Below are positions 3,011 to 57,479 of a stretch of DNA of 64,000 nucleotides, piece by piece. Under the pieces are notes generated by a model. That model was given only the letters and a program-made list of their open reading frames with translations, did no database searches and was not told where the DNA came from. Position 1 is the first letter of the stretch. Every line of letters starts with the position of its first letter. Source of the DNA: Thermodesulfovibrionales bacterium (GTDB taxonomy: Bacteria > Nitrospirota > Thermodesulfovibrionia > Thermodesulfovibrionales > SM23-35). The stretch lies in assembly GCA_963716185.1 (NCBI GenBank), contig OY970295.1, positions 1,080,356 through 1,144,355 of the forward strand, read 5' to 3'. The translations under genes were made by a program, and so were the position numbers.

Positions 3011-3219
3011 GTTAATCCAAAAACTGCAATTCACTGAATATCCGGGGAGGCATAGTGGCAGAAAAAGCTTGACAGCAGCACCTTTGTGGGCGCTCAGATA
3101 TCAAGGTAGCCCGAATATTTTTATTCAGAAGAAATATATGGTAGAAAACCCAAATTCTGCATCGTCAAGATTTTTGTGTCACTATGCCTGCCTGAATCTG
3201 AGATCAACCGCATTTTTCG
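3011..3219 (+). repeat. Structured intergenic repeat family, full copy 1 (candidate sRNA or MITE)
   Basis: About 85% identical over its flanks to 57175..57392. Promoter-like TTAATC-N17-TGAATA (3011-3039). 5' arm GGCATAGTGGCAGAAAAAGCTTGAC (3048-) pairs with GTCAAGATTTTTGTGTCACTATGCC (-3187), with a G.U pair valid only on the plus strand. Confidence 0.6.
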
Positions 3220-3277
3220 GTCAATAATTTATTTTACTTGGATACTCGAATGATAAACAGGAAATCGGTTTCCCTCA

Positions 3278-22485: not shown

Positions 22486-22596
22486 CAGTATTCACCTCCA
22501 TATACTTTTACAAGGTATCACAAATCAGAGTTCGCCGCAACAAAAAGAAGAGATCTTCCGGTAGCCCTTCAGTGGAGCGTATGACGCGGCGAAGCA

Positions 22597-22677
22597 AGAA
22601 AGATTTCCGACGCGCTTGCGCTTGCGGGAATGACAACCGGAGTGAATTGTCATTCCGGCTTGTCCGGAATCTTTCTT
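22597..22677. repeat. REP-like composite hairpin repeat (units B then A)
   Basis: GATTTCCGACGCGCTTGCGCTTGCGGGAATGACA ... TGTCATTCCGGCTTGTCCGGAATCTTTC. Both units recur at 28190-28268. Confidence 0.8.
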
Positions 22678-22758
22678 AAATGCCACGATTGACTGAAGGG
22701 TTACGGTCTTCCGCTCTGATGCATGGACATAAGCCCTGATAGAAGATAAAATTATAGA

Positions 22759-39107: not shown

Positions 39108-41087
39108 TTATTTTACAACATTTGCCCATGAAAAATGACCAGGCAAGATTTTATTTGTTTCCGCGTGAAGTCCTTCCACAATTCTTTTAACGAGACCGGC
39201 CAGGACGGGATATTCACCGTTTGTAATATCCAGGTCCTCTTTGAGTAGTCTCAACCCCTCAGGGATATATTTCCTGAAATATTTTTTCCCTTTGACCGCA
39301 GACAGAAAGCCATAAGCGCCGAGGGCCTGCATATGACGCTGAAGACGGCAGGAGAGCAGGGTTTCCATGAATTCATTCTCTTCGAAAGATTTCACGGCGA
39401 CCCTGATTTTGCGGATGAAATAGTCTAACAGCCGCGCCCTTAGATCATCTTCAAGGCGGTAATAGGGGTCCCAGAGTATCGATGCGACGTCATAGGCGGG
39501 CGGGCCCATTCTCGCACCCTGGTAATCCAGAAGCCTCGGTATCCCGCCTTTCGTAATCATGATATTCTGCGACTGGAAATCACGGTGGATTATTGTCCTG
39601 GGAAAAGTATCCACCTTCACGGCTAAACGGTGGAACTCCTCATTCAGTAAATCGACATTTCCGACCAGTATATTAACGACGCCGGACACGAATCTATCCA
39701 GGAAATAACCCGTCTCCCACCTGAGATGTCCATAATCGAAAACTCTTTCCAGAAGGAGAGGACATTCCGAGACATGCTCGGTCGCTCCTCCGTGCATCAG
39801 GATCAAAATATCGAGCACTCTTTTATACGTTTCTTCCATCTCTTCATGTTTACGCCGGCAGCTGAGCCAGCTGTAGAGAGACAGATCGCCGAGATCTTCA
39901 AAAACAGCGCGCATCCTTTCAGGTTCTGCTTCTATAAGTTCCGGAACAGGGACGGAGTGTTTACGGAAAAAAAGTGTATATTCAATGTGACGAAGGAAAT
40001 CAGGATCGTTGTCCGCGCACTGCATAAGGACCGCAGAACGGCCGTTTCTTTTCACCCGATAGTAGGTCCTGTCGGACCCCCCCGTGCCGATGACTACAGT
40101 ACCCGCCTCGACGGATAAGCCAAGCATCCCGGTTGGAGTGAGGTCTAATTTGAAACCGGGGCCGAGGATGCAATCCTCATAATGACGGCCGTTCTCGATC
40201 TCGCTACCCGGGAGCATGATGCAATTCCTGACGGCAATACCATTCTTTATTGTTGCATTTTTTGAAACGACCGTTTCTTTTTCTATAACAATGTATCCGT
40301 CCAGCTCAATATTCTCACACAGACTTTCGGAGGGGTCTATATAGACGGTTTCTCCATTTTCTCTCAGGTTATGAATGACGGTCCTTGCATAGGAAACAGG
40401 CGTCCCGATATCACTCCAGAAGCAGCCGGTAAAATCCAGGGTCCCGATTCTGTGACCCGCTGCGACAGCCCTGAACCAGGCATCAACAACGCTTGACACT
40501 CCGCCGGGCAGAAAATTCAAGAACTCCGGCTGATACACCGCTATGCCGGTAAAAGCCACATGTTTTGATGTTTCGTGACCACCTCGCCCGTGCCCCTTCC
40601 CCGATGACGGGGCGGCATGGACGTGATTAATAATCCCTTCAAGAAAGCCCTTGCCATCTACCGCAAGCTTGTTGAACTCTGCATAGTCGTGCACGGCAAG
40701 AGTTGCAATATTATTGGATGAAAGATGGCAGTCAACCAGTTTTTTTAATTCCATGTCGCTGACTATGTCCGAATTGTGGACAAGAAAAATATCGTCTTTC
40801 AGAAAAGCCCCGGCATTTTTCAGTGCCCCTCCGGTACCGAGGATAGGTTCTTCGGGGAAAAGCCGGACCCTTTTGTTGAATGATGACCGGCTTAACCAGT
40901 CTCCGATTTCATCTTTTTTGTAGTGAAGATTTATTCCTGTTTTGCCCGCCACGGCCGATACCTTTTCGAGAAGCGATTCCAAAACGGGCTTGCCGAGGAC
41001 CGGGAGAAGAGGTTTGGGAATATGGTCGGTGATCGGGCGCAACCTTTCACCCCGTCCGGCAGCTAAAATAAATACCGAGAGGTTCAC
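39108..41087 (-). CDS. bifunctional sugar-1-phosphate nucleotidyltransferase / sugar kinase (MurU::AmgK-like fusion)
   Basis: 659 aa. N-terminal NTP-transferase (FILAAGRGERLRPITDHIPKPLLPV), a short left-handed beta-helix segment, and a C-terminal APH-type kinase (IIHRDFQSQNIM..., LDYQGARMGPPAYDVASIL). Confidence 0.65.
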   Translation of the reverse strand: MNLSVFILAAGRGERLRPITDHIPKPLLPVLGKPVLESLLEKVSAVAGKTGINLHYKKDEIGDWLSRSSFNKRVRLFPEEPILGTGGALKNAGAFLKDDIFLVHNSDIVSDMELKKLVDCHLSSNNIATLAVHDYAEFNKLAVDGKGFLEGIINHVHAAPSSGKGHGRGGHETSKHVAFTGIAVYQPEFLNFLPGGVSSVVDAWFRAVAAGHRIGTLDFTGCFWSDIGTPVSYARTVIHNLRENGETVYIDPSESLCENIELDGYIVIEKETVVSKNATIKNGIAVRNCIMLPGSEIENGRHYEDCILGPGFKLDLTPTGMLGLSVEAGTVVIGTGGSDRTYYRVKRNGRSAVLMQCADNDPDFLRHIEYTLFFRKHSVPVPELIEAEPERMRAVFEDLGDLSLYSWLSCRRKHEEMEETYKRVLDILILMHGGATEHVSECPLLLERVFDYGHLRWETGYFLDRFVSGVVNILVGNVDLLNEEFHRLAVKVDTFPRTIIHRDFQSQNIMITKGGIPRLLDYQGARMGPPAYDVASILWDPYYRLEDDLRARLLDYFIRKIRVAVKSFEENEFMETLLSCRLQRHMQALGAYGFLSAVKGKKYFRKYIPEGLRLLKEDLDITNGEYPVLAGLVKRIVEGLHAETNKILPGHFSWANVVK

Positions 41088-41129
41088 TTATGTAGTTTAC
41101 CAAAACGTTGGGAAAAACAATTTCTCATT

Positions 41130-41293
41130 ACAAGGGCAGATAGGTTGAAAAAAGCCTGTAGCAGCACCTTATGGCCGCATAAACCGGCCTGCCAGCCTTT
41201 GATATAATGCACGGACTATGAGATTTGCATTCATGTGTATAATAAATAAAATCTTGTTGCATTACAGGGGTTTTTCAACCTGTCTGCCCTTGT
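41130..41293 (+). repeat. Structured intergenic repeat family, copy 3 (covarying arms)
   Basis: 23-nt arms ACAAGGGCAGATAGGTTGAAAAA / TTTTTCAACCTGTCTGCCCTTGT (one U.G pair, valid on the plus strand only). Core AAAAAGCCTGTAGCAGCACCTTATGGCCGC resembles AAAAAGCTTGACAGCAGCACCTTTGTGGGCGC of copies 1 and 2. Confidence 0.55.
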
Positions 41294-41311
41294 TTTATGC
41301 ACCGGATGGCC

Positions 41312-42505
41312 TCATTTATAAATCAAATACCTTTTCCTAAACCGCTTATCAAATTTGTCACACTGCCCTTGCCACCATTCCTCCATCCTGTCGAGAGTCT
41401 TCCCGTCTTCGATATCCGTCCTCAGCCGGTCTGTCCCGGCAAGGATATCAATAGGCATTTTCTCAGTCTCATATTCATAGGGGGGCTTTTTCCATTCAAA
41501 AAATTCCGGGTAGATATCATGGATTATCTTAAGGACCGCAACCCCTGTTTTGAAAGACCTGAATCTTTCCCTGTTGATCACATGGAACTGTGCGCCTCCG
41601 CACAGTTTTCCCGCATATTTCTGGAAGGTCGGCTGAAAGTACAAAGGCCTGAAAACAGCGCCCGGAAGTTTCAACGTCTTAATGTGATGAATCACCCTTT
41701 CCGGTTCTATGAAAGGAGCTCCGAATATCTCGAACGGACGCGTCGTGCCCCGTCCTTCGCTGATGTTTGTGGCCTCAAGGAGACACATGCCGGGGTATAC
41801 CGTGGCCGTATCCAGGGCCGGCATATTCGGGGAAGGCATGACCCATGGGAAGCCGGTTTCATCGAACCATAACTTCCTCCTCCAGCCGTCCATGGGGACA
41901 ACATGATAATCCAGGGAGGGATAGAATTCATTCCGGAGATAACAGCCTATTTCACCTATTGTCATTGCGTGCCGGACCGGCAGCGGACGCTGCCCGACAA
42001 AGGAGGCATAATCCTGGCCCAGTACGGGGCCTTCGACGATACGGCCCCCTATCGGATTAGGCCTGTCAAGTATTACCATGGACTTGCCGGTTTCCGTGCA
42101 TACCTGCATGCAAAGTTCCATTGTCCATATGAACGTGTAATAGCGGGAGCCGACATCCTGAACGTCTATTGCCAGCACATCAATATCTTTTAACATCCAC
42201 GGTTCGGGTTTTCTGGTATGTCCGTAAAGACTGAAAACAGGAAGGCCTGTAATGGGATCGATAAAGCCCTCCCATTCAACCATGTTATCCTGAGTTTCTC
42301 CCCGGATTCCATGCTGCGGACCGAAGAGAGCTTTCAAAACAAACTTTTTTGATCTGACGAAAAGACTGACGGAATGCTCCAGTTTTCTATTTACAGACGC
42401 CGGATGTACAAGGAGGCCTACGCGGGAGCCTCTTAGCCTTTTCGGCCATTTCTCCGCCAACAGATCAAGTCCAACCCGGACCGGGCCGTCAGACATTTTC
42501 CTCAA
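41312..42505 (-). CDS. DUF1343 family protein (exo-beta-N-acetylmuramidase NamZ-like)
   Basis: 397 aa. RVGLLVHPASVN, LFGPQHGIRGE.QDNM, DIDVLAIDVQDVGSRYYT, ILDRPNP. Confidence 0.7.
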   Translation of the reverse strand: MRKMSDGPVRVGLDLLAEKWPKRLRGSRVGLLVHPASVNRKLEHSVSLFVRSKKFVLKALFGPQHGIRGETQDNMVEWEGFIDPITGLPVFSLYGHTRKPEPWMLKDIDVLAIDVQDVGSRYYTFIWTMELCMQVCTETGKSMVILDRPNPIGGRIVEGPVLGQDYASFVGQRPLPVRHAMTIGEIGCYLRNEFYPSLDYHVVPMDGWRRKLWFDETGFPWVMPSPNMPALDTATVYPGMCLLEATNISEGRGTTRPFEIFGAPFIEPERVIHHIKTLKLPGAVFRPLYFQPTFQKYAGKLCGGAQFHVINRERFRSFKTGVAVLKIIHDIYPEFFEWKKPPYEYETEKMPIDILAGTDRLRTDIEDGKTLDRMEEWWQGQCDKFDKRFRKRYLIYK

Positions 42506-46991: not shown

Positions 46992-47067
46992 ATGGTGGAG
47001 CTGACCGGGATCGAACCGGCGACCCCAACGTTGCGAACGTTGTGCTCTCCCAGCTGAGCTACAGCCC
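46992..47067 (-). tRNA. tRNA-Ala (anticodon CGC), CCA encoded
   Basis: GGGGCTGTAGCTCAGCTGGGAGAGCACAACGTTCGCAACGTTGGGGTCGCCGGTTCGATCCCGGTCAGCTCCACCA. Folds as a cloverleaf by hand. G3:U70 identity pair, anticodon loop TTCGCAA. Confidence 0.9.
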
Positions 47068-47185
47068 CCCTTTTTAGCTCCAAGGATTCCGAAGCAATTA
47101 AAAATTATATCATAGCGAAGCTGCAACCCGCCAGCACCACCGCTAAATCACCCTGCAGGAACTTCAGTTTATCCATTATATTTTA

Positions 47186-49321: not shown

Positions 49322-49785
49322 AGGAGTTCGAACCGAAGATAGTCGGTTTCTTGTGCAACTGGTGCTCCTACGCAGGAGCCGATGCTGCGGGCAGCGCACG
49401 GAAAACATATCCGCCCAATGTTAGGGTTATCCGGGTCATGTGCACGGGCAGGATAGATCCGCAATTTGTTCTCAAGGCTTTTCAATCCGGCGCCGACGGT
49501 GTCATGATACTCGGCTGTCATCCGGGCGACTGCCATTACAAGGAAGGAAATTACAAGGCCCTCCGGAGGTTCCATCTTTTAAGGCGGGTGTTGGGCCAAT
49601 TCGGGATTGAAGAAGACAGATTCCGTCTCGATTGGGTCTCTGCAAGCGAGGCCGACAAATTTGTCGACGTCATAAAGGACATGGTAAAAAAGATTAAGGC
49701 GCTCGGGCCGGTGAAAACAATCCCAGTTCACTCCTCTTTGGAAAAAGGGGGAAGCGTTGTATTCCCGGAGGAGGCGCATGGCTAA
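49318..49785 (+). CDS. mvhD: methyl-viologen-reducing hydrogenase delta subunit (MvhD); start unresolved
   Basis: Core EFEPKIVGFLCNWCSYAGADAAG...VIRVMCTGRIDP...GADGVMILGCHPGDCHY. No ATG/GTG/TTG between the hdrA stop and the conserved core. ATA 49318 overlaps the hdrA TAA (ATAA). The only canonical start is ATG 49213, 109 nt inside hdrA. Confidence 0.7.
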   Translation: MKEFEPKIVGFLCNWCSYAGADAAGSARKTYPPNVRVIRVMCTGRIDPQFVLKAFQSGADGVMILGCHPGDCHYKEGNYKALRRFHLLRRVLGQFGIEEDRFRLDWVSASEADKFVDVIKDMVKKIKALGPVKTIPVHSSLEKGGSVVFPEEAHG

Positions 49786-50752
49786 ACCGAAGGTGGCGTT
49801 TTACTGGTGCGCCTCCTGCGGCGGATGCGAAGAGTCGATCGTCGATCTGGCCGAAAACATCCTGAAGGTGGCCGAAGCGGTAGAGTTTGTTTTGTTTCCC
49901 GTGGCGATGGACTTCAAGGTGAAGGATGTCGAGGCTTTGCGGGATGGAGAAATCGCGGTCAGTTTCATCAACGGCGGGATACGGACCGGGGAGCAGGAAC
50001 ATATGGCGAAACTGCTCAGGAAAAAATCCGGTCTTGTCGTCGCATACGGGGCGTGTGCGCATTTGGGGGGCACTCCCGGTCTGGCAAATTTCTTCAACAG
50101 GGACATGATCTTTGATTATGTATATCATAAATCCCCGTCAGTCGAAAACCCTCACGGAACAACTCCCCAGCTGAAAACAACGGTTCACCAGGGAGAATTG
50201 ACATTACCGAAATTTTACGATACCGTCTATACCTTAGACCAGGTGATCGATGTAGACTATTATCTGCCGGGATGTGCGCCTCCGCCCGACCTGATCATGA
50301 AGGCGATTGAAGCCATTCTGTCCGGTAATCTCCCTCCGAAAGGCTCTGTGCTTGCCCCCGATAAGTCGTTATGCGATACATGCAAACGGAAACCGACGAA
50401 ACCTGAAAAAGCGGTCTTAAAAGAGATCAAAAGGGTCCACGAAGTCATGCTCGATCCCGAACGCTGTTTTTTAGACCAGGGCATTATCTGCCTGGGCCCC
50501 GCTACCCGTGACGGCTGCGGCGAGCGGTGCATCAATGCTAATATGCCGTGCCGGGGCTGCTTCGGGTCTACAAGCAGAGTTGAGGACCAGGGCGCGAAAT
50601 TCCTCTCCGCCCTCGCATCGATCATTGATGCTGAAGATGAAGATGAAATAAAGAAGATAACCGATTCGATCGTGGATCCCGCTGGCATCTTTTACTTTTA
50701 TTCATTGGCGGCGTCGATGCTGAGAAGGAGAATAGACATAGCGAATGAGTAA
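49778..50752 (+). CDS. mvhG: [NiFe] hydrogenase small subunit (MvhG type)
   Basis: ATG 49778 behind GGAGGAGG. MAKPKVAFYWCASCGGCEESIVDL plus distal Cys clusters. ATGGCTAA overlap with mvhD. Confidence 0.85.
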   Translation: MAKPKVAFYWCASCGGCEESIVDLAENILKVAEAVEFVLFPVAMDFKVKDVEALRDGEIAVSFINGGIRTGEQEHMAKLLRKKSGLVVAYGACAHLGGTPGLANFFNRDMIFDYVYHKSPSVENPHGTTPQLKTTVHQGELTLPKFYDTVYTLDQVIDVDYYLPGCAPPPDLIMKAIEAILSGNLPPKGSVLAPDKSLCDTCKRKPTKPEKAVLKEIKRVHEVMLDPERCFLDQGIICLGPATRDGCGERCINANMPCRGCFGSTSRVEDQGAKFLSALASIIDAEDEDEIKKITDSIVDPAGIFYFYSLAASMLRRRIDIANE

Positions 50753-57174: not shown

Positions 57175-57392
57175 TTCATCCAAAAACTGCAATTCACTAA
57201 ATATGCGGGGAGGCATAGTGGCAGAAAAAACTTGACAGCAGCACCTTTGTGGGCGGTCAGATATCAAGACCGCGCGGATATTTTTAATCAGAAAAATATC
57301 TGGCGTAGAAAAACCCAAATTCTGTCCCGAAGGCTTTCGGGATTTTTATGTCACTATACCTGCCTGAATCTGAGATCAATCGCATTTTTCGG
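57175..57392 (+). repeat. Structured intergenic repeat family, full copy 2
   Basis: TTCATC-N17-TAAATA promoter-like module. 5' arm GGCATAGTGGCAGAAAAA (57212-), 3' arm TTTTTATGTCACTATACC (-57360). Internal terminator-like CCCGAAGGCTTTCGGGATTTTT (57326-47). Shared 3' tail TGCCTGAATCTGAGATCAA.CGCATTTTTCGG. Confidence 0.6.
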
Positions 57393-57479
57393 GTTCATAA
57401 TTCTTTCATATTTCCTTCGACATTTCTTCATATTTTCAATGTAAACTTAAATGTAGAAAATAACTTTCTTCATTTTTAG

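Follow-up and report, generated by a model that had tools for sequence, protein, structure and literature searches.

The 164-nt hairpin at positions 41130–41293 of the window is the internal long palindrome of a MITE copy, not a regulatory RNA gene. The element that carries it, referred to here as copy 3, can be identified with high confidence as a non-coding MITE of ~210 nt with IS1380-family ends, inserted in the NamZ → MurU-AmgK operon. The window is the whole stretch of DNA that was analysed, 64,000 nucleotides corresponding to positions 1080356–1144355 of the genome (G000:C1), which consists of one contig of 3,585,087 bp with a G+C content of 45.9%. Positions refer to the window unless a genome position is indicated.

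Structure of the element

The hairpin is formed by an inverted repeat with 31-nt arms (41130–41160 and 41263–41293, + strand), which are 90% complementary and separated by a spacer of 102 nt. It is the longest and best of the five inverted repeats found in the window (arms of at least 20 nt, no more than 400 nt apart). The 5′ arm includes an A5-6 tract and the 3′ arm a T5 tract, and both were delimited by the repeat search and by covariation. Read by hand, the 23-nt arms comprise 22 Watson–Crick pairs and one T.G pair; the sequence-only reading had described a 164-nt element with complementary arms, and its sequence, coordinates and all of these pairs were confirmed. As + strand RNA the 224-nt insert is predicted to fold with −75.4 kcal/mol (z −4.55), and as − strand RNA with −71.0 kcal/mol (z −4.24); none of 200 shuffles was as good in either case. 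Two more inverted repeats of the window are located at 49765–49821 (25-nt arms, 7 nt apart, 76%) and 22561–22704 (20-nt arms, 104 nt apart, 80%).

The 5′ arm runs into the box AGCAGCACCTT (41160–41170, + strand). Exact matches to the box are present at positions 3074, 41160 and 57237 of the window, and with up to one mismatch there are four matches against a chance mean of 1.07. The core of the box, CACCTT, is family-wide, being found in 22 of the 33 full-length copies described below, and it aligns with the box of the sister family to which copies 1 and 2 belong.

In the alignment of the 33 copies, conservation extends beyond the hairpin to a left end, CCCATCAGTTGCATAAAAT, and a right end, TATGCAACrTTAaGG, which are mutually inverted repeats. 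In copy 3 the corresponding terminal inverted repeats, of IS1380 type, are CCAAAACGTTGGGAAAAACA on the left (41100–41119, + strand) and TTTATGCACCGGATGG on the right (41294–41309, + strand). The canonical unit thus delimited measures 210 nt (41100–41309) and the whole insert 220–224 nt, both within the size of MITEs, which stay below ~600 bp, and without a transposase ORF. The sole ORF of at least 60 aa that touches copy 3 (40942–41148, + strand, 68 aa) extends for the most part beyond the element and runs antisense to MurU-AmgK.

Insertion between the NamZ and MurU-AmgK genes

Copy 3 is flanked by two minus-strand genes, and their Pfam domains agree with the assignment made in the sequence-only reading. 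Transcriptionally upstream of the insert is a NamZ-like gene (41312–42505, − strand) encoding a 397-aa protein with NamZ_N (PF07075, 8.4e-80) and NamZ_C (PF20732, 7.4e-55) domains. Transcriptionally downstream, a MurU::AmgK-like fusion of 659 aa (39108–41087, − strand) combines NTP_transferase (PF00483, 2.7e-19) and APH (PF01636, 5.4e-19) domains. Both genes are intact, with full-length domains, despite the insert.

The same junction is empty in three related genomes, G002, G009 and G017, where NamZ abuts MurU-AmgK, with an ATGA stop/start overlap in G009 and G017. In G002 and G009, which represent other genera of the same family, the + strand junction reads ..TTCATTTRTA.. and contains a single copy of the sequence that is directly repeated in the window. 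The window junction has 220 extra nt between TCACTTAT (41084–41091) and TCATTTAT (41312–41319), an 8-bp direct repeat matching at seven of eight positions. The right copy of the repeat provides the NamZ stop TGA (41312–41314, − strand), and the left copy the start of MurU-AmgK, which is now GTG (41085–41087, − strand). Filled and empty orthologous sites, which attest to past mobility, were found not only at this junction but also for the family member at genome position 3269188, with empty sites in G022 and G023.

The junctions of copy 3 are atypical. The flanking repeat is 8 bp instead of 4–5 bp, and, by sequence reading, eight extra bases, GTAGTTTA (41092–41099), separate the direct repeat from the canonical MITE end on the left, and two do so on the right. 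The last four of the left extra bases, TTTA, stand at the place expected of a 4-bp target duplication and the right-side 4-mer is CCTC, so the 4-mers at the canonical ends (41100 and 41309) are unlike. This arrangement may reflect a duplication of 8 bp, a duplication of 4 bp (TTAT) combined with imprecise ends, or small changes that came later.

Other inserts occupy the orthologous junction in two further genomes. That of G001 (L010, ~1405–1500) is ~96 nt long and flanked by a TTCAT duplication, and no homology was found between it and copy 3. That of G014 (L013) is ~150 nt long, has family-1-like arms, GTAGGGCATAGTATT / AATACTATGCCCTAC, and is unrelated to copy 3. Insertions seem to recur at the T/A-rich stop/start overlap, and because the inserts of G001 and G014 are unrelated to that of the window, the site tolerates insertions seemingly without requiring copy 3. 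At the site orthologous to G000:C1:3269188–3269414, three genomes contain three different hairpin-plus-box elements (L029 in G001, L030 in G002, and that of the own genome), with arms GGCAGACAGATGTATAG.., GGTATAAGGGCAGG.. and the family-3 arms; the own-genome element is oriented opposite to those of G001 and G002.

Copy number and distribution

A search of the own genome with positions 41100–41320 gave 24 matches. Two rounds of nhmmer identified 46 hits of the family of copy 3 (hereafter family 3) at E ≤ 1e-3, and a profile that included the flanks identified 48 at E ≤ 1e-5, of which 33 are full-length copies of a repeat of ~210–220 nt. The copies are mainly intergenic, as is typical of MITEs: when genes were called crudely from ORFs, 27 of the 33 had no overlap above 20 bp with any called ORF; 26 lie between same-direction genes, four between convergent and three between divergent ones. 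The closest own-genome copy is no more than ~84% identical to copy 3, so there is no sign of its recent movement.

Among same-direction gene pairs, the plus orientation of the element is mostly antisense, both in family 3 (19 versus 7) and in family 1 (23 versus 11); pooled, the bias is 42 versus 18 (p = 0.0027, with crude ORF-based gene calls). Orientation relative to the chromosome halves, as a proxy of the replication strand, shows only a weak trend, with a GC skew that is itself untidy.

Across the order, the core of the element was found in 12 of 201 genomes including the own one; the others are distributed over the host families f1 (7 of 21) and f2 (4 of 22), with none in the 157 genomes of the other 11 families. 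In a separate sample of 31 relatives, copies were present in nine other f1 genomes. One copy in G003 is ~86–87% identical to copy 3, while the flanking genes are only 67–75% identical to their counterparts in other genera, and this gap in identity between the copy and the flanking genes hints at a spread of the element between genera. Searches of plasmid and phage collections for the element gave no match.

An 18-nt palindrome, TCCCGAAAGCTTTCGGGA, has 111 matches in the genome at no more than one mismatch (e.g. C1:171899, 238460 and 593804), where shuffled sequence has about one per Mb. Family-1 copies contain 42 of the matches and family-3 copies two; the remaining 67 are elsewhere, often within another repeat (GTCATTCCCGCAATCCCGAA..). 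The palindrome appears to be an independent REP-like element which inserts into MITEs as well.

Terminal repeats and the IS1380-family partner

The ISs of the IS1380 family have CC ends, generate duplications of 4–5 bp and are related to piggyBac, which has TTAA targets. The outer ends of family 3 (CC..GTTGCATAAA / TATGCAACGTTAGGG) match those of a resident 1520-bp IS of this family, CTTTGCAGTTGCATAAAT / AATGCAACGTTAGGG, the consensus ends of the MITE and the ends of the IS agreeing at 14–15 of 20 bases; family 3 has the IS-like terminal repeats of a MITE. The ends of copy 3 itself are more diverged than the family consensus, and in about eight of 31 family-3 copies the outer ends are poorly recognisable on both sides. 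With 232.9 bits on NF033539 (IS1380 family), the 458-aa protein of the resident IS exceeds the curated cut-off of 180 bits, and all four examined copies of the IS have identical 4-bp flanks (TTTA, TTTA, TTAT and TTAA). Its end sequences also flank relatives of the transposase in MAGs assigned to Nitrospirae, Nitrospiraceae and Thermodesulfovibrionales (76–88% amino acid identity), as well as a 52%-identical transposase in a Latescibacterota MAG.

The partner IS was reached through end pairs in G002 and then by searching the own genome with the protein found there. In the own genome, inverted pairs of the end motif 0.3–8 kb apart were chance pairs only, such as 596517/598130, which lies inside a gene, and none brackets a gene. 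Five relatives were scanned for the end motif of family 1, and G002 yielded ~17 inverted pairs spaced 1.63 kb apart. The unit that they delimit (e.g. C1:215442–217070 of G002; L074) is a 1621-bp IS, present there in ~17 copies and encoding a 460-aa protein (NF033539, 210 bits; PF13701, 2.5e-29), and its ends agree with those of the family-1 MITEs at 16 and 14 of 20 bases. The protein has seven matches in the own genome, belonging to the 24%-identical resident IS, and three of the seven are full-length open frames without stops. The 1621-bp IS itself is absent from the window's genome, though the family-1 MITEs of this genome match its ends. Each of the IS1380-family ISs found here carries one gene of a DDE transposase of ~460 aa in 1.5–1.6 kb.

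Short duplications at the MITE copies are less regular than at the IS. By eye, three family-3 loci have identical flanking 4-mers (TCTA, TTTA and TCAA). Direct repeats of 8 nt were found around 18 of 31 family-3 copies, against 13–21 in shifted controls, and identical flanking 4-mers at eight of 30 family-1 copies, against 6.95 expected; neither is significant, and the family-1 test does not exceed expectation because TTAA dominates. Two other origins were considered for the outer GTTGCA motif, a sigma-54 promoter and an integron attC site; judged by eye, spacing and consensus fit neither.

Since the ends of copy 3 copy those of the resident IS, copy 3 was probably moved in trans by the resident DDE transposase. 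In the proposed mechanism, the terminal inverted repeats of copy 3 would have been copied from the ends of this IS, and the transposase would make short duplications at T/A-rich targets. Copy 3 landed in the 4-base stop/start overlap of the NamZ → MurU-AmgK operon, and the formerly coupled genes are now 224 nt apart, each keeping a copy of the duplicated junction, with TGA in NamZ and GTG in MurU-AmgK. As a by-product, the operon mRNA would gain an intercistronic hairpin that is predicted to be very stable.

Relationship to copies 1 and 2

Copies 1 and 2 fall into another MITE family, larger than family 3 and termed family 1 here, for which nhmmer gave 135 hits, counting duplicates on both strands, and 55 distinct near-full loci. 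Copy 1 (3017–3220, + strand) has the ends CCAAAAACTGCAAT / GCATTTTTCGG and the flanks TTAA(T) and TCAA. Copy 2 (57180–57393, + strand) has the 5-bp sequence TTCAT on both sides (57175–57179 and 57394–57398), a perfect direct repeat and the clearest target duplication of the window.

The two families are separate at the level of profile searches. Among the 46 own-genome hits of the family-3 profile at E ≤ 1e-3 there was neither copy 1, copy 2 nor any family-1 locus. Conversely, the family-1 profile searched against 31 family-3 copies gave one weak colinear hit of 11.5 bits (shuffle maximum 2.3) and one chimera; nhmmer recovery at a significant level, by which the box similarity was to be distinguished from a chance match, therefore failed across the families. 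However, alignment of the interior consensus sequences gave a score of 89; shuffles scored 28.1 ± 9.1 with a maximum of 58, and the reverse complement also reached 58. The colinear blocks are GGGGAGGCA, GAAAAAG, CAGC, CACCTT, GGCC-GCC, TGTC, GCTTT and GGG-TTTTT. Since the interiors align above shuffles, the families are distant relatives, and the kinship of copy 3 with copies 1 and 2 that had been proposed from the box stands, supported by this alignment. Judged by their sequences, the termini of family 1 and family 3 track two IS1380 clades. Copies 1 and 2 represent a sister MITE family with ends that match another IS1380 clade and a distantly homologous interior.

A chimeric copy (G000:C1:3492129–3492358) consists of a family-1 outer end fused to a family-3 hairpin core at a common GGCAGG motif, which points to recombination between families 1 and 3. 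A third MITE family of ~180 nt (range ~170–210 nt) combines family-1-type ends (TTAACCCRAAAAATGC) with an unrelated AT-rich interior; its loci include G000:C1:1848283–1848462, 1876065–1876242, 2436812–2436991 and 2550070–2550252. Minimal end-to-end units of 38 nt (542041–542078) and 61 nt (957082–957142), were also observed.

Maintenance of the hairpin

RNAalifold predicted the long hairpin from the 33 copies, with a compensatory change in at least one copy at 20 of 29 pairs. Covariation was tested on these 29 pairs and five added inner pairs, that is, on 34 pairs and 1113 cells. Paired states occupy 93.4% of the cells, against 82.6 ± 0.6% in shuffles; two-sided changes were found in 23 of the 34 pairs, and the covariation score was 0.400, compared with no more than 0.113 for slid partners. 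None of 500 shuffles reached any of the covariation measures. Because the copies are related, 16 non-overlapping nearest-neighbour pairs of copies were also compared: of 34 two-sided differences, 27 preserve pairing, against at most 14.3 expected if the sites had changed independently. Copy 3 has two private compensated pairs, GGTTG/CAACC, compared with TGCTG/CAGCA in its nearest relatives, including the G003 copy. Arm-to-arm complementarity is actively maintained in transposing lineages, and the observation that the arms differ among members while their pairing is kept holds against all of these controls. The hairpin is kept either by selection or by arm-to-arm correction.

The likeliest reason for its conservation, to which we give about an even chance, is that folding back or cruciform formation brings the ends together or promotes mobilisation in another way; the alternative is correction between the arms. 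The ~160-nt interior, with the arms, the A5/T5 tracts and the CACCTT box, may be a conserved structured module in its own right, although we regard this as doubtful. The interior is common to two MITE families whose IS1380 clades have transposases only 24% identical, its pairing is kept by the excess of compensatory changes, and two more genomes, a congener and a member of another genus, have related interiors with other arms at one orthologous site. Such a module may be a structure needed by transposition, for example a fold-back joining the IS1380 ends, or alternatively an RNA or DNA signal used by the host between cistrons.

Alternative explanations

The sequence-only reading had taken the element for a dedicated structured RNA locus on the plus strand, that is, a small RNA or cis-regulatory element whose arms covary through selection on the RNA fold. 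This interpretation draws on a hairpin strength far beyond that of shuffles, on the extensive compensatory changes and, over all cells, on an excess of G.U-type over A.C-type states (65 versus 21), and is nevertheless very unlikely. The G.U excess stems from a few inherited positions and private states are symmetric (12 versus 10), so the arm changes show no strand asymmetry; the plus-strand orientation that had been read from the U.G pair is not borne out, and the minus strand folds nearly as well. The extended −10 string TGATATAAT is present as described (41200–41208, + strand), but is specific to this copy, TGnTATAAT being found in one of 33, and was not called by the promoter and terminator scan, which gave one unrelated promoter-like site, against 1.1 expected, and no terminators. 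With Rfam 15, only a tRNA (46996–47068) was detected in the window and nothing on the element at the gathering score; in E-value mode, positions 40900–41500 gave two chance-level snoRNA hits (E 5 and 9.8) and none with E < 5. The plus orientation in family 3 is, moreover, mostly antisense to same-direction genes. The 33 dispersed copies with IS1380-type terminal repeats, and the empty sites in relatives, speak against a dedicated locus. The alternative raised in that reading itself, a MITE terminus present in many unrelated contexts, is essentially what was found, with the hairpin forming the MITE interior in 33 unrelated, nearly all intergenic contexts.

A different role for RNA is envisaged if the host has recruited the MITE hairpin to signal processing or stability of the NamZ/MurU-AmgK mRNA, for example as an RNase III site. 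By analogy with what is described for Correia elements, it would uncouple or tune the expression of the two genes. The insert is located within the operon, both flanking genes are intact, and in the transcribed orientation the element folds to −71 kcal/mol; the orientation bias among same-direction pairs, as far as the crude gene calls allow, points the same way, and cleavage of Correia-containing transcripts by RNase III has been described (PMC10969869). However, G002, G009 and G017 manage without an insert at this junction, G001 and G014 carry unrelated ones, and compensatory evolution runs along transposing lineages and not at this locus alone. We consider co-option improbable.

Selection on a hairpin would likewise be accounted for if the element were REPIN-like and mobilised in single-stranded form by a tyrosine (Y1) transposase of the REP-associated type. 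REP sequences have the tetranucleotide GTAG at their 5′ ends, and the inserted DNA of copy 3 starts with GTAG; the own genome also has 12 matches to the Y1 transposase domain PF01797, and compensatory hairpin changes are described for REPINs (PMC3116915). Against such an origin, the terminal inverted repeats are of the DDE (IS1380) type, short direct repeats, which are not made by Y1 transposition, occur at some copies, and the orientation skew between chromosome halves is only weak. Five Y1 genes were checked, and no family-1 or family-3 copy flanks any of them, the closest lying 2.2 kb away, so a REPIN-type origin is unsupported, and we consider it exceedingly unlikely. The reading preferred here remains that of a MITE with IS1380-family ends, its mobilisation by the resident transposase being proposed from the match of the ends.

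Comparison with known elements and implications

Chunjie of Geobacter uraniireducens and Nezha of cyanobacteria are bacterial MITEs of ~130–235 bp without an ORF (PMC3184786, PMC10969869). As described there, they resemble the family of copy 3 in several respects: their terminal inverted repeats reproduce those of a resident IS, direct repeats flank the element (here at copy 3 and some other copies), the copies number in the dozens and lie mostly between genes, the predicted folds are very stable, and relatives have filled and empty sites. Chunjie, too, is found inside an operon. Chunjie differs in its target duplication of 9 bp, compared with the short T/A-rich duplications of 4–5 bp here. 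Unlike Chunjie and Nezha, the families described here have IS1380-family ISs as partners, and two sister families combine the ends of two IS1380 clades with one homologous palindromic interior. The IS1380 ISs themselves (NF033539, PF13701) make target duplications of 4 bp (or 5 bp) and have, like the family of copy 3, ends that start with CC(C), but copy 3 has the ends only and no transposase, and is a derivative and not a member of the IS1380 family.

The Correia/NEMIS elements of Neisseria are likewise small, co-transcribed inverted-repeat elements that form a long hairpin, which is cut by RNase III (PMC10969869). They differ from copy 3 in sequence, ends and partner, and the resemblance is one of functional analogy only; as such, their cutting by RNase III is the closest analogy for the possible fate of the operon mRNA. 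The REPINs of Pseudomonas fluorescens and bcr1 of the Bacillus cereus group are described as dispersed non-coding repeats in which a hairpin is kept by compensatory changes (PMC3116915, PMC3184786). REPINs, however, depend on a Y1 (RAYT) transposase and lack DDE-type terminal repeats, and no RAYT association was found at the five genes checked here.

In a literature search for IS1380 together with MITE, no title or abstract among the papers listed described an IS1380-derived MITE, and one full paper assigns its MITE to IS1182. IS1380 is also absent from the main text of a 2024 review (PMC10969869) and of a 2024 survey of 183,232 genomes, the supplements of which may list families. The families described here may thus be the first MITEs reported for IS1380. 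A fold-back of IS1380 ends by a hairpin interior was not described in the literature searched.

Copy 3 is a copy of a previously undescribed MITE family, an ordinary kind of mobile repeat whose hairpin is unusually well kept. Its identification disposes of a false lead: what had been noted as a covarying ‘third family member’ is a mobile repeat and not a regulatory RNA locus. For the annotation of Thermodesulfovibrionales-like Nitrospirota, it provides two defined MITE families and the sketch of a third, with their IS1380 partners; such repeats otherwise break assemblies and mimic small-RNA genes. It also presents a case in which a MITE split a translationally coupled peptidoglycan-recycling pair and neither gene was destroyed. 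Of remaining interest are the hairpin maintained in two families whose IS1380 ends differ, the clean split of the gene pair and the atypical junctions of copy 3. With their measurable excess of compensatory changes, these families can be used to ask why MITE hairpins are conserved.
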